A stretch of DNA of 64,000 nucleotides from Eledone cirrhosa (Eukaryota): contig OZ024742.1 in the NCBI GenBank assembly GCA_964016885.1, forward strand, positions 229,028,001 through 229,092,000. The letters are read 5' to 3'. The notes under the pieces were generated by a model, which did not search any database, was not told the DNA's origin, and saw only the letters and a list, made by a program, of their open reading frames with translations. This document shows positions 1,270 to 62,785 of this stretch, piece after piece. Positions within the stretch are counted from its first letter, which is position 1, and every line of letters begins with the position of its first letter. Both the position numbers and the translations under genes were made by a program.

Positions 1270-1528
<259 letters not shown>

Positions 1529-4456: not shown

Positions 4457-4538
4457 TCTCTCGCTGATGATGCCCAAGGATTATCTGTTACAAACACACT
4501 CAGGGCGAAACAGATTAAACACTAATCTGTCCGGGAGA
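4457..4538 (+). ncRNA. type I hammerhead ribozyme
   Basis: tctctcg-CTGATGA-t-gccc...gggc-GAAA-cagatta-aacac-taatctg-TC-cgggaga. 7-bp stem I, 4-bp stem II, 8-bp stem III, GUC cleavage triplet (after 4531). Confidence 0.9.
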
Positions 4539-5285: not shown

Positions 5286-5334
<49 letters not shown>

Positions 5335-5349
5335 ATATATATATATATA

Positions 5350-5560
5350 ACGAAGGAAATGTGGTACGGAACCAGGTGGACCATAATGCACCAAAGTACT
5401 CAATACTTAGTGTAGTAGAGTGGGTAATAGGAACGAGTAGGACCCCGACGGCTGAGCTCAAGCCGTTTCGACGGCTAATTCTGTACTAAATGAACATTTA
5501 GTCCAGAATTAGCCGTCGAAACGGCTTGAGCTCAGCCGTCGGGGTCCTACTCGTTCCTAT
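5350..5560. mobile_element. family H2 palindromic insertion
   Basis: Inverted arms centred ~5492, inside HHR stem II; flanked by (TA)n. Confidence 0.8.
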
Positions 5561-5569
5561 ATATATATA

Positions 5570-5965
5570 TTAATAAAAGGAATTCCAACTTTGTCTGATT
5601 TACTCGTTTTATTTACAATCCTTTAAAATTTATAATGGCATTAGAATGAAATAGTATGGTAGAATATTAAATGTTAAGTGTTAATTGAACAAGTACTTTC
5701 TTGCTTTCGCAATCTTCAGGTTCATATTCTGTGGTGACAGTCAAGTTTGCAATTTTCAACTGTAAAGAGATGGGTAAATTTTGTGCCTTATATACAGAGA
5801 AAAGTGGCTCCAGAATGCTAAATCTTGCAAACTGTATTTCGACCAATCGGTGTGTAGTTTCACTGGATTACTAAAGCTGATTGGTTTAGGCGTCAATAAA
5901 ACGGATTAAAGGATTGTAAATAAAACGAGTAAATCAGACAAAGTTGGAATTCTTTTTATTAATAT
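5570..5965 (-). mobile_element. TA-embedded element, family H4, with inverted terminal segment
   Basis: 5571-5626 is the reverse complement of ~5906-5962; contains the HHR at 5686-5724. Confidence 0.75.
5686..5724 (-). ncRNA. minimal type I hammerhead ribozyme (39 nt)
   Basis: tgaac-CTGAAGA-ttgc-gaaa-gcaa-GAAA-gtac-TT-gttca. Perfect stems I and II (GNRA loop); palindromic stem III AGTACT. Confidence 0.9.
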
Positions 5966-9041: not shown

Positions 9042-9116
<75 letters not shown>

Positions 9117-9118
<2 letters not shown>

Positions 9119-9306
9119 CAACGAGTAGGACCCCGACGGCTGAGCTCAAGCTGTCTTGACGGCTAATTCTGGACAGAATTAGCCGTCGAAACGGCTTGAG
9201 CTCAGCCGTCGGGGTCTTACTCGTTCCTATTACCCACTCTACTACCCTAAGTATTGAGTACTTTGGTGCGTTATGGTCCACCTGGTTCCTTACCACATTT
9301 CCTTCG

Positions 9307-9308
<2 letters not shown>
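9117..9308. mobile_element. family H2 insertion with short inverted 5' segment
   Basis: Inversion junction ~9173 in HHR stem II; 3' end 'cacatttccttcgt' runs into (TA)n. Confidence 0.8.
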
Positions 9309-9352
<44 letters not shown>

Positions 9353-13604: not shown

Positions 13605-14808
<1,204 letters not shown>

Positions 14809-17146: not shown

Positions 17147-17529
<383 letters not shown>

Positions 17530-17710: not shown

Positions 17711-19640
17711 GTAATTAGAAACAACATTTTCCTAAATGTGTGGGGGAATACGGAGGAAGTAATCAAATGGTTCTCCACCATTAGTAACCATGGTGCCCTC
17801 AGGTTTGTCCAGTTCGATATAGATTCTTACTACACATCTATATCTCCTATCCTTATGAATAAGGCCCTCATCATGGCCATGCAGAATAGTGATCTAACCA
17901 GATCCCAAGTTGATATAGTTTTAACCGCACGTAAAACCTTAATCTTATTTTAGGAACAATTGTGGACTAGGAAAAACACTAACAACAACTTTGATATCAC
18001 AATGGGATCTGCAGACTCTGCCCAGGTAACTGATTTGTTCGGACTTTACCTAATCCATGAGCTTCATAAGACACTTCCTTACCTTTTCGGTGGGTTATAC
18101 CGCGACGATGCCCTCCTTACCCTTGAGCATAAAAAATTAGTATTTAATGGTACACAGAAGGACCTACGCAAATTCTTTAAAAGTTATAACCTTAATATTA
18201 CTATTGATAAGAATAATAAAACTAAATTTCTTGGATGCAACACTAGATCTGGTAAATAAGACTTACACACCATATCATAAACCTAATGAGAGACTAACTT
18301 ATGTACATACTGGATTTAACCACCCTAAATCAGTACTGAATGTTATTGTTAAGGGAGTATCTAATAGGATCAGCCGTTTATCATGCGGTGAAGATATTTT
18401 CAATTCTAATGCGGATAACGAAGCATTAGCTAAGTCTAGATATAAGAATAAACTATTTTACGTATCTGCTAGCTTCCAATCTAACGTAGCTGGGCATAAT
18501 AATGTTATTACACACAGTATGTCTTTAAATTATAATTATAATGATAACAGTAATAGAACTCTAGATAGGACCCATGTAGTGATTAGCTCAGCCCAGCTTA
18601 GACTGAACGGCCCTAATATGCATCCTCCAAATACTTCTAATGGAACTAATCCATTACACTAATGGAAGTGCGGCGAAATTTGGAAAACACACTCATAGTA
18701 GAGTATTAGATAGGCATATTGACCAATATAATGCGAGAATTTCACGACCAGTATATGGTGAACTTGGTTCCGTATGCCTAGGGGAGAGTAATAACTCTGG
18801 TGGTAACCGGACTCTAGTGGGGAAAAATAGAAAAAGTAGAAGAAGAATGAACACCTTTTTCAACCCACCATACAACTCTGAGGTCTTAACTAATATTCCC
18901 CAAACATTCTTCTTAATCCTAGAAAAGAACTTGCCGCCGGCCAACAGATACCATAGTATATTCAATAAAAACACAATTAAATTATCGTACTCCACTACAC
19001 CTAACCTAGCTTACCACCTGGCACGTACTAATAATCAGAAAATTAGTGTAGGTTTTGAAGATATTAAATCTGTGAATAACTAACAGCAACCTAACACATT
19101 GGCTAATGCGGCACCGCCGATTGCTGACATCACATCTGATGAACACATTACAGGTCAAACGGGTTTGAACAATAGTCCATCCCAAGGTATGAATAACGAC
19201 ACATATCGTAATTGTAATTGTAGAAGGAGTAGAAATTGCCCTTTAAAAGGCAATTGTCTCACGAGGAATATTGTTTATGCATGTGATGTTGTAATAACAA
19301 CCTCCACTAAGACATATGTGGGTTCTACTTCTACAGCTTTTAAAACTAGATTTAACTCCGACAATTATACTTTTAGATATGATAGGCTTAAAAATGCTAC
19401 CTCCCTAGCTAAATATATTCACTCTTTAAAATATGATGGTATAGATTATACACTCAATTGGAGGTTGGTAACTAAATCTCCACCCTACCGCCCCCGAACA
19501 AAACTTGTAACCTCTGCCAGCTTGAGTCTCATACCATAGTTTACTCTAACTGTGAATTACTGAATAGGAAATCGGAGATTTTCTCATCTTGTATTCACAT
19601 GAAACTTAATTCATTTTACCACTATAAACCTATTACATAG
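17711..19640 (+). pseudogene. PLE reverse transcriptase / Zn-finger / GIY-YIG endonuclease, disrupted
   Basis: RT motifs [35 protein letters not shown] and NFLDATLDL...Y.PY.KP....YVH..NHP; linker FNPPYN...IFNKNTIKLSYS; CNCRRSRNCPLKGNC; IVY...YVGST...FK.R; TCNLC..E...LLNRKSEIFSSCIH. Several stops and frameshifts. Confidence 0.92.
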
Positions 19641-52660: not shown

Positions 52661-52714
<54 letters not shown>

Positions 52715-52724
52715 AAAATGTATG

Positions 52725-52823
52725 ACCCCGACGGCAGAGCTCAAGCCGTTTCGACGGCTATTTCTGGACTAAAGTAAGAGATTTTCTAGTCTGGTAAATA
52801 AATAGCCGAACTTTTCAAGGGGT
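52725..52823 (-). ncRNA. type I HHR with U3-A8 variant core (family H2)
   Basis: acccc-TTGAAAA-g-tt-cggctattt...aaatagccg-t-c-GAAA-cggc-ttgagctct-gccg-TC-ggggt. Confidence 0.75.
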
Positions 52824-52932
52824 ACTTCCTTATATCGGAAGATTGAAGTTGTCAAGATGATTGCTCAAAATTTGTCTGCTACGAATTTTGACCAATCCTC
52901 TTGACAACTACAATCTTCCCATATAAGGAAGT

Positions 52933-53032
52933 ACCCCTTGAAAAATTCGGCTATTTATTTACCAGACTAAAAAAAACTCTTACTTTAGTCCAGAAATAGC
53001 CGTTGAAACGGCTTGGACTCTGCCGTCGGGGT
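52933..53032 (+). ncRNA. type I HHR with U3-A8 variant core (inverted copy)
   Basis: acccc-TTGAAAA-a-ttcggctattt...aaatagccg-tt-GAAA-cggc...gccg-TC-ggggt. Confidence 0.72.
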
Positions 53033-53164
53033 CATACTTTCTCATATATATATATATATATATATATAACGAAGGAAATGTGGTAAGGAACCAGGTGGAC
53101 CATAACGCACCAAAGTACTCAATACTTAGGGTAGTAGAGTGGGTATATATATATAAACATATAT

Positions 53165-53237
<73 letters not shown>

Positions 53238-53334
53238 AAGGTTAAACAAGGTTCAATGAATAAGTCAATGAATAAAGTTTTACAATAAATTAGAAGCACT
53301 CCAGAGAAATGGTTTTCCGGAGTTATTAATATTA

Positions 53335-53657
53335 ATTCAAAATATTAACAAATATAGACATTCGTGTCATCAAGTATATTTTATTATACATATTTCAGAG
53401 GTACTGAGCTATTTACAACAGTACGTCCTCATCAGATAAAATAAGATGATGCTTGACATACCTTGACTATGTTGATGGTTAAAATTCAGTCATGCCATGA
53501 CTGAATTTTAACCATCAACATAGTCAAGGTATGTCAAGCATCATCTTATTTTATCTGATGAGGACGTACTGTTGTAAATAGCTCAGTACCTCTGAAATAT
53601 GTATAATAAAATATACTTGATGACACGAATGTCTATATTTGTTAATATTTTGAATTT
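53335..53657. mobile_element. near-perfect ~160-bp-arm palindrome carrying two HHRs
   Basis: Centre ~53495. HHR at 53548-53612 (+): attttat-CTGATGA-gga-c-gtactg...cagtac-c-tct-GAAA-tatgta-TA-ataaaat; mirror at 53378-53442 (-). Confidence 0.85.
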
Positions 53658-53814
53658 ATATATATATATAAATGAGATCAATTGTACAGTTGTTGTTCTA
53701 TGGTATCAATTTGACATACCAGAACTATAAAATTGAGATAAGCGGAGCAGGTAAGATTCAAACAATTTTTTAAAATAAATTAAAAAAATAATTTAAATAT
53801 TTACCTATTCCATT

Positions 53815-58214: not shown

Positions 58215-59062
58215 AATCATATTATAAGGTATCTATTTTTGAAGTTCTAGTCAACTTTATTTAGTTACCTACCTAGCTATGTGTGCTTACACACTTGTAA
58301 AAATTATCCCCTGTGATTGTTTCATATGTTTATTTATATGCTAATCAATTTCTAGTTGTTATAAAATGCTCGGACCTATTCATTAGAATCTTGGAGCTTA
58401 TTTTACGGGTGATATGGCGCATGCCTTTCTGGCATGACACCCATAATTTTGATTTCGATTAAATTCACTTTGATTTATCTTAATTTTGGATATATATATA
58501 TAAATACGGCTCCTTAATTGTAGAGCTAACTCTCTTGAAAGGACTTGACTGCTGTTTCTAGTTGTCGAGAACCCTATTCACGCCACTGGGACGAAGCTGG
58601 TATGATGTGTGTATTTTTAGTAGATACAGCACGTGTTACTGGCCAGTCGCTGATTTGAACTTAATGCGTAAACACAGATGGCTGGACTTCTTCCTTGTTG
58701 AAAATCCAAGTATCGGCCTCCGTGGTTTACCATTCGATTAATTGGTGAAATATATTTCTTTAATGGAATATATACAGGGAAGATTAATCATATTATAAGG
58801 TATCTATTTTTGAAGTTCTAGTTAACTTTATTTAGTTACCTACCTAGCTATGTGTGCTTACACACTTGTAAAAATTATCCCCTATGATTGTTTCATATGT
58901 TTATTTATATGCTAATCAATTTCTAGTTGTTATAAAATGCTCGGACCTATTCATTAGAAACTTGGAGCTTATTTTACGGGTGATATGGCATATGCCTTTC
59001 TGGCATGACACCCATAATTTTGATTTAGATTAACTTCACTTTGATTTGTCTTAATTTTGGAT
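58215..59062 (+). mobile_element. family H8 tandem element (~571-nt period)
   Basis: ~275-bp direct repeat at 58215 and 58786, each ending 'cttaattttgga(TA)n'. HHR at 58689-58783; third copy at 63570-63903. Confidence 0.85.
58689..58783 (+). ncRNA. type I HHR with U3-A8 variant core (family H8)
   Basis: tcttccttg-TTGAAAA-t-ccaa..atcg...cgat..ttgg-t-GAAA-tatattt...gaatata-TA-cagggaaga. 9-bp stem I, 8-bp stem III. Confidence 0.8.
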
Positions 59063-62110: not shown

Positions 62111-62785
62111 CGGGAATTTTATATTCTCCAAGTGAAAAGAACCTTCTGACGAGAGTTTATATTTTCAATGGACGCCCGCAAGGACTATCTATTTATTTTT
62201 GAGACTCGAAGCCGTTTCGGTAAAGGTAACCATAGTAAGTACAATGAATTTTTTGAAATTTATTTTGAAACTTTTTCTTATTTGCTAAACCTTGATTATA
62301 TATGTTCTGGCTCGTTAATTTATTAACCTGCCATTGAACCACATTGGCATATGGTTGGATAATACATGTGTCCCTATACGTTTTTTGCGTGTAGGAATAT
62401 ATATTTTATTATTATTAATCTCCCCCTTGTCGAGATAAAACTTGATCGTTTTGACTACTGCTATTTTTAGTGATAGTAGATTGACCTCCCTGCCTCTGCT
62501 TCTATCTTTGCACACGGCACTGGACAGAATTGCTTTCACATCATTCATTCTCATCTCGGGAACAATTTTGAATAGAGCCAGTTCGTAATTCGAACTCGGG
62601 AATTTTATATTCTCCGAGTGAAAAGAACCTTCTGACGAGAGTTTATATTTTCAATGGACGCCCGCAAGGACTATCCATTTATTTTTGAGACTCGAAACCG
62701 TTTCGGTAAAGGTAACCATAGTAAGTACAGGGAATTTTTTGAAATTTATTTTGAAACTTTTTCTTATTTGCTAAACCTTGATTAT
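62111..62785 (+). mobile_element. family H3: ~1.4 tandem monomers, 486-nt period, HHR in each repeat
   Basis: ~190-bp direct repeat (62111 and 62597); predicted cleavage after 62222 and 62708; flanked by (TA)n. Confidence 0.9.
62627..62713 (+). ncRNA. type I hammerhead ribozyme
   Basis: acctt-CTGACGA-gagttt...agactc-GAAA-ccgtttcgg-TA-aaggt. The upstream copy at 62141-62227 has GAAG instead of GAAA. Confidence 0.9.

Follow-up and report, generated by a model that had tools for sequence, protein, structure and literature searches.

Within the window, by which we mean the whole 64,000-nucleotide stretch of DNA analysed here, both arms of a palindrome carry a hammerhead motif with a U3-A8 pair in the core. 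The preliminary description attributed this to a successful repeat family that uses a variant core. The locus raises the questions of what kind of element left the palindrome, which feature of the core is fixed among its relatives, and whether the element needs the ribozyme to cut each time it is copied.

The palindrome and the element that left it

The two inverted-repeat arms are ~91-92% alike and join at 52873-52876, with TA runs on both sides and a 3-nt microhomology between the arms at 52873-52875 (Table 1). As previously reported, both arms read ACCCC-TTGAAAA-stem II-GAAA-stem III-TC-GGGGT; in the plus-strand arm, stem II is followed by GAAA, by CGGC and GCCG separated by 9 nt, by TC (C17 at 53027), and by GGGGT (53028-53032). 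The conserved bases U4 G5 A6 N7, A9, and G12 A13 A14, the A15.1-U16.1 pair, and the NUH site were all present. The minimum-energy fold of both arms was the hammerhead three-way junction with stem I open, with z-scores of -3.94 for the plus arm (0 of 200 shuffles as stable), -1.80 for the minus arm (10 of 200 shuffles), and -3.35 for a typical genomic copy. By sequence and predicted fold, both arms are type I hammerheads, for which self-cleavage after the GUC is predicted. The fold also predicted a bulged extension of stem I, for which inspection by eye revealed no conserved partner sequence. No match in the window reached the Rfam gathering score; those of the palindrome may have been missed because of the long stem II and the variant core.

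Table 1. Features of the palindrome locus and of sister-subfamily remnants in the window.
Feature	Positions	Strand	Details or basis
(TA)n target, left	52661..52712		sequence
Left arm	52713..52875	-	5'-truncated 3' end (pLTR part) of Hydra-clade element; stops 17 nt past cut site in (TA)n
Type I hammerhead, minus arm	52725..52823	-	core TTGAAAA at 52818-52812; G10.1-C11.1; predicted cut after C at 52730
Right arm	52876..53044	+	5'-truncated subfamily A 3' end; stops 17 nt past cut site in (TA)n
Type I hammerhead, plus arm, decayed copy	52933..53032	+	A10.1-U11.1; GAGCTC palindrome of loop III lost; predicted cut after C at 53027
ACCCC	52933-52937	+	directly before core
Core U3 U4 G5 A6 A7 A8 A9 (TTGAAAA)	52938..52944	+	sequence
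Long stem II region, 60 nt	52945..53004	+	closing pair, small asymmetric loop, 9-bp helix, internal loop, 7-bp hairpin
Stem III, 5 bp, 9-nt loop	53008..53026	+	loop is a GAGCTC palindrome in intact copies
(TA)n target, right	53045..53068		sequence
Inverted B-type sister-subfamily tail fragment (~+23 to +97)	53069..53143	-	separate insertion; 100% identical to 9233-9332
B1-type two-armed remnant, hammerhead 3' half only	1270..1428 (region 1270-1450)		sequence comparison
B2-type two-armed remnant, 3' half only	5340..5560 (region 5320-5570)		full B2 copies have C3·A8
B-type two-armed remnant, 3' half only	9118..9310 (region 9090-9330)
B1-type two-armed remnant, 3' half only	17203..17422 (region 17180-17445)

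The caution that the two arms are not independent evidence was borne out. The best genome match of the left arm was 95%, with no closer subfamily among 40 scored, and derivation of this arm from a separate, closer subfamily was rejected on that ground. The pair closing stem II is G-C in the minus arm and A-T in the plus arm, as had been read, but it is not evidence of covariation: A-T was found in 1 of 63 A-type copies, against 0.19 expected from single changes, and in the plus arm it is best read as decay. Two further details of the earlier account changed. The adjoining stretch 53069-53143, proposed as part of the query for the palindrome, is an inverted B-type tail inserted separately, and the copies near 1270, 5350, 9117, and 17202, which do keep only the 3' half of the hammerhead (plus the tail), belong to the sister subfamilies B1 and B2 and not to subfamily A.

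A chimeric structure was observed in the left arm at 52713-52729 (minus strand), where an A-type body is joined to an exact 12-nt tail of subfamily F, and similarly in another copy (L382), where a B1b body carries an F tail. Both may reflect a template switch, conversion, or two convergent changes.

The family encodes its own mobility protein. From the cut site, the element runs through a 97-nt tail, which in the partial tandem L378 leads on to a 5' UTR with the start codon at +194, into a single ORF, followed by a 3' UTR of 0.75-1.15 kb and the hammerhead. The unit length estimated from several partial copies was 3.1-3.5 kb. The ORF contains a reverse transcriptase (RT) with the core motif YRDDG and then a C-terminal GIY-YIG endonuclease (EN). 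The Pfam RVT_1 match to the RT was weak (E 0.061), and a PDB sequence search with the RT piece gave no match under E 0.8. The linker CNCPDRSTC (CxCX5C), with CNLC (CxxC) and CKH (CxH) beside the conserved E and N, was found in P0001, together with a DKT motif. Insertion was into (TA)n: 143 of 170 distinct long tails enter a TA run directly, and most of the other 27 enter degenerate TA. Judged by these motifs, which were compared by eye with reference Hydra proteins, the palindrome is the 3' end of a Hydra-clade Penelope-like element (PLE) inserted in (TA)n. This Penelope-type element is very common, and the locus preserves a decayed remnant of it with two arms.

As far as the available text of the Hydra clade description goes (PMC8557442), the palindrome lineage shares with that clade the RT with C-terminal GIY-YIG, the CxCX5C linker, the CxxC/CxH pair around the E/N motif, DKT, (TA)n targets, a hammerhead near the 3' end, and inverted 5'-truncated copies. 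The two differ in the hammerhead: all 26 hammerhead rows in File S2 of that source are C3-G8 with short stems II and III, whereas the palindrome lineage has A8, a stem II region of 54-60 nt, and a 5-bp stem III. They also differ in unit length (3.1-3.5 kb versus < ~3 kb) and in having RWR instead of RWK; a canonical hammerhead near the 3' end and a length below ~3 kb are given there as general traits of the clade and not as its definition. Two other identities were rejected. Naiad PLEs have an N-terminal GIY-YIG, whereas the EN domain here lies after the RT and before the stop codon. Non-LTR retrozymes of animals, in the parts of the reports available (bioRxiv 10.64898/2026.07.22.740005; PMC7229834), likewise place a type I hammerhead in a Penelope-mobilised repeat, but they are short tandem non-coding units, whereas the palindrome family encodes its own RT-EN.

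Core variants and their order of descent

Cores were tallied in 180 distinct full copies. Subfamily A, the type of the palindrome, had TTGAAAA in 50 of 64 copies, B1 had TTGAGAA in 9 of 10, and C had TTGATAA in 26 of 30, while CTGAGAA prevailed in D (21/27) and B2 (34/39), whose tallies represent the best 30 of 40 scored hits; the 180 copies also include 10 that are unassigned or A2, and two B2 rows are mis-anchored. Subfamily F had TTGAAAA in 15 of 25 copies, and B1b had TTGATAA in 19 of 20. Thus a Watson-Crick pair between positions 3 and 8 (U3-A8) occurs at the palindrome and in A, F, B1, B1b, and C, and is missing from D and B2. The queries that retrieved most of D and B2 and part of A lay wholly upstream of the core, and that for C covered positions 5-9 but not position 3.

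A genome-wide pattern with positions 3, 7, and 8 left free gave 5,836 exact matches, against 0 for the reversed control, in agreement with the earlier view of a successful family with a non-canonical core and, like the fold scores, against a chance motif; since the flanks of the pattern were fixed, a C3-G8 subfamily with other flanks would escape it. Among the first 100 matches listed, which were counted by hand, include paired arms, and favour young copies, 75 were U3-A8, 25 were C3·A8, and none was C3-G8. The canonical pair was likewise absent from all 180 distinct copies (0/180), so the prevalence of CTGANGA among full copies, which the preliminary description named as the outcome that would speak against it, was not observed. 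Position 7 in the listed matches was G in 72, T in 13, A in 10, and C in 5; the most frequent core was TTGAGAA (50), the core of the palindrome itself (TTGAAAA) accounted for 8, and 8 of the 100 were B2-like copies with U3. As for the proposal that U3-A8 is common in this lineage, about a quarter of the full copies have C3·A8 instead. By these counts, position 8 is always A, any base is accepted at N7, and position 3 alternates between U and C. The fixed trait of the palindrome lineage is A8, not the 3-8 pair, and subfamilies D and B2 were amplified with a mismatched C3·A8 core pair. An alternative register of CTGAGAA, with a C3-G7 pair, N7 deleted, and an extra A, was given low weight; CTGAAAA and CTGATAA were only sporadic (3 of the 100 listed).

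The U3-A8 core alone is already known. According to the available portions of the reports, covariation to U3-A8 was described in several natural hammerheads in 2011 (Perreault et al., PMC3088659), and U3-A8 was found in Penelope elements of Schistosoma mansoni, with ~1,300 hits, in 2014 (Cervera and de la Pena, PMC4209133). The latter elements, Cercyon, resemble the palindrome lineage in carrying U3-A8 in a Penelope pLTR, in having many single and inverted copies, and in the G10.1-C11.1 pair. Their hammerheads lack helix III and act as dimers, whereas the monomer of the palindrome lineage folds completely. The new part is the two amplified sister subfamilies with a mismatched pair: the available text on Cercyon mentions no C3·A8 subfamilies (PMC4209133), that on natural core variants shares U3-A8 with our lineage and describes no amplified C3·A8 form (PMC3088659), and no report of amplified C3·A8 hammerheads was found in the literature searched, in which coverage of subscription papers and supplements was limited.

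Two lines of sequence evidence bear on selection. In stem II, subfamily C differs from the rest by two clean double changes (G-C to A-U and U-A to G-C); this covariation comes from one lineage and few events, and stems I and III barely vary. The 5' half of the hammerhead was also conserved. Over 17 positions (3 and 7 left out), none differed among A, D, B2, and B1 (0/17) and one differed in C (1/17), whose EN is ~59% identical to that of A, against differences of 17-50% between subfamilies in the upstream UTR. The contrast between the 5' half and the UTR was significant for A versus C (Fisher p 0.0003) and A versus B2 (p 0.003). Across the mismatched step itself, D versus B2, it was marginal (0/17 against 35/208 in the UTR, p 0.05).

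In the EN trees the subfamilies form a ladder, C/A - F - D - B2 - B1, and B1 (U3) branches from within B2 (C3) at support values of 92/96 and 98/97. The three trees, one of which had an unsettled bootstrap, placed the root of the ladder differently, and subfamily C formed one long branch. Under any rooting, position 3 changed at least two times and two subfamilies were amplified with the C·A mismatch. A root within D would make the mismatch the original state and would require two origins of U3. Subfamily C showed a decay of 8%, compared with 3-4% in the other subfamilies, and its being older and more distant argues for U3 first.

Copy shape and the need for cleavage

Copies were also counted in a random 1 Mb, made up of 100 evenly spaced 10-kb stretches (L126-L225), with C arms counted under other labels. 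Of the 75 arms that reach the tail, 62 end at two sites, 27 at +17-20 and 35 at +97-99. The 5' ends of 52 of these arms fall at -45 to -25, within the 3' strand of stem II, and 5 of the 75 keep the core. This heaping of 5' truncations in a 20-nt stretch leaves most copies without the catalytic core; RT pausing or self-complementary AT microhomology may be its cause. In a second count of the same megabase, which gave 62 arms in 41 insertions, B2 was the most frequent named type (13/62 arms). Scaled to the 3.0 Gb genome, this corresponds to ~120,000 insertions and ~15,000 core-bearing copies (5,000-35,000). A strict descriptor gave 8 hits in the random megabase, too few for a core census.

A peak of breakpoints at the cut site, considered as a possible footprint of cleavage in vivo, was not found: across all loci examined there were 3 true breakpoints from +1 to +3, compared with ~1 per nt nearby, and none of the 75 arms of the random megabase starts between -12 and +7. 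Copies run through the cut site, so this site was intact in their template, which was either uncut or re-ligated.

We assign a probability of roughly 0.55 to the following overall reading. The palindrome in its TA run is the two-armed remnant of the 3' end of a Hydra-clade PLE, with a type I hammerhead in both arms; position 8 is A throughout the lineage and position 3 moves between U and C; and the hammerhead probably cuts itself slowly and need not do so in every copying round. The last point is suggested by D and B2: both spread while their core pair was mismatched, so that fast self-cutting is probably dispensable in any one round. In this model, the element's protein would nick (TA)n and the RT would start at two internal sites (+17-20 and +97-99) on an RNA that keeps an intact cut site, either an uncut tandem transcript or a re-ligated circle. 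Two cDNAs, one per DNA strand, would in most cases terminate in stem II before being joined, so that most of the resulting palindromes would lack the core. Occasional cutting, possibly assisted by protein, would set the 5' end of the unit RNA and keep the core under long-term selection, although the weakness of the U3-A8 pair and, during two generations of subfamilies, the C3·A8 mismatch would be tolerated.

A precedent for internal starts is PAc, a Poseidon element of Anolis, in which internal initiation likewise gives two fixed ends past the hammerhead. In the available text on PAc (PMC11167929), the RT begins at two internal sites, which gives an optional tail past the hammerhead as in the palindrome lineage, the targets are AT-rich, uncut RNA serves as template (a feature to which we liken the palindrome lineage), and the hammerhead cuts only with protein. 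PAc belongs to another clade, its tail is 30-40 nt, compared with ~80 nt between the two ends here, and its core is the canonical C3-G8.

A second reading, which we regard as rather unlikely, holds that cleavage and circularisation are essential, that C3·A8 is tolerated through a C·A wobble or with the help of protein, and that read-through copies come from re-ligated circles. All other core bases stayed fixed through D and B2, which speaks for it, and a circle model was proposed for PLE hammerheads in the available text of PMC4209133. Partial tandems in which the tail runs into the 5' UTR and ORF (L378, L144) also fit a circular template, and in a single case (L305, minus strand, near 1100) a long D copy starts ~8 nt past the predicted cut site. 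The lack of a breakpoint excess at +1 speaks against it, as do the effects of mutations reported in the accessible parts of two studies. Full pairwise mutagenesis of another hammerhead found that only the C3G/G8C swap rescued the 3-8 pair, the other single and double mutants of that pair having low activity (PMC9901934), and in PAc C3G or G8C abolished cleavage and left insertion in vitro unaffected (PMC11167929). Against the slow cutting assumed in the overall reading, U3-A8 was reported to be active in vitro in some contexts (PMC3088659, available portion, citing its ref. 32), so the U3-A8 forms may be fast.

The mismatched subfamilies might instead carry dead ribozymes and owe their copies to machinery acting in trans or to the luck of a few source elements, with U3 regained later by selection or by recombination with a U3 subfamily. 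The chimeric copies (the left arm and L382) suggest that subfamilies do recombine, and the B2-like copies with U3 among the matches listed also fit. We nevertheless consider this improbable, because the UTRs of D and B2 are 17% different with the 5' half unchanged, each keeps its own RT-EN reading frame, and no other named type in the random sample is as frequent as B2. Least probable of all, and in our view very unlikely, is that the motif is no longer a ribozyme here and persists as a structure at which the element's protein binds or pauses beside the RT starts: the heap of 5' ends in stem II, the 3' half and tail being the best conserved parts, and the suggestion that hammerheads may merely ride along in PLEs (Craig et al. 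2021, PMC8557442, available text) would suit it, but fixed unpaired U4, G5, A6, A9, G12-A14, and GUC with any base at N7 are the pattern expected of a catalytic core.

A further proposal, tentative and rather doubtful, is that the C3·A8 hammerheads of D and B2 remain capable of cutting, whether unaided or helped by the element's protein, position 3 opposite A8 being a free pyrimidine. If they do, the lineage would be a natural record of a mismatched 3-8 intermediate that survived thousands of transpositions and was later re-paired, and would mark a passable route from one core type to another through states that scored low in mutagenesis. The role of hammerheads in PLEs is debated, with processing, circle formation, and mere passenger status all under discussion. 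In the palindrome lineage a single scaffold carries a natural allelic series, in which U3-A8 is combined with each of the four bases at N7 and C3·A8 occurs in two amplified subfamilies. This makes the role of the hammerhead, and in particular whether fast cleavage is needed, directly testable, as well as the passage of a compensatory core change through a mismatch. The entire family, with no fewer than 5,836 copies that include the 5' half, escapes descriptors that require C3-G8.

Other hammerhead families in the window and in sampled DNA

Relaxed scans, filtered by repetition and by eye without a shuffle control, yielded ~17 credible repeated hammerhead families, of which 13 have C3-G8 (one with U4A) and four have U3-A8; clusters such as TTGAGCA, TTGATGA, and GAGAACA were judged to be chance and left out of the 17. 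The U3-A8 families are the palindrome lineage, a tandem family represented in the window at 58689-58783 (+), and two further tandem families. U3-A8 is thus found in three repeat families besides the palindrome lineage, a point in support of the preliminary description.

The family at 58689 is a young, retrozyme-like tandem non-coding unit of ~0.6 kb, with TTGAAAA in 28 of 30 copies, many of them 100% identical over 121 nt. The palindrome hammerhead had been called independent of this family. We found no alignable sequence outside the core between the palindrome lineage and the other U3-A8 families, and no ORF in the 58689 family, so a separate origin and shared descent are both possible. One of the further tandem families (family Y; L199 (-), L124, L063, L095, L209) has TTGATAA in 5 of 5 copies and a long stem II, the opening of which resembles that of the palindrome lineage over 18 nt at a non-significant E of 0.27. 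The other (family Z; L182:761 (+), L155:6329 (+), L115, L330, L331) has a unit of ~320 bp and a compact U3-A8 hammerhead with variable stems.

A related Hydra family (L061:2-1096 plus 3' UTR; L166, L215, and others), with an EN 50% identical to that of the palindrome family, occurred in 10 of the 100 random stretches. In 27 of 30 distinct copies of this family the hammerhead core was CAGAAGA, which retains C3-G8 but has A in place of U4, and this U4A form extends the natural allelic series. Canonical C3-G8 hammerheads of other repeat families lie in the window at 4457-4538 (+), 62627-62713 (+), 14277-14355 (-), and 53324-53666, the last being a palindrome with 171-nt arms that belongs to one such family. 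Another Hydra-type element has left decayed pieces of its RT and GIY-YIG domains at 17714-18205 and 19189-19533 (+), which are 41% and 34% identical, respectively, to the protein of the palindrome family.
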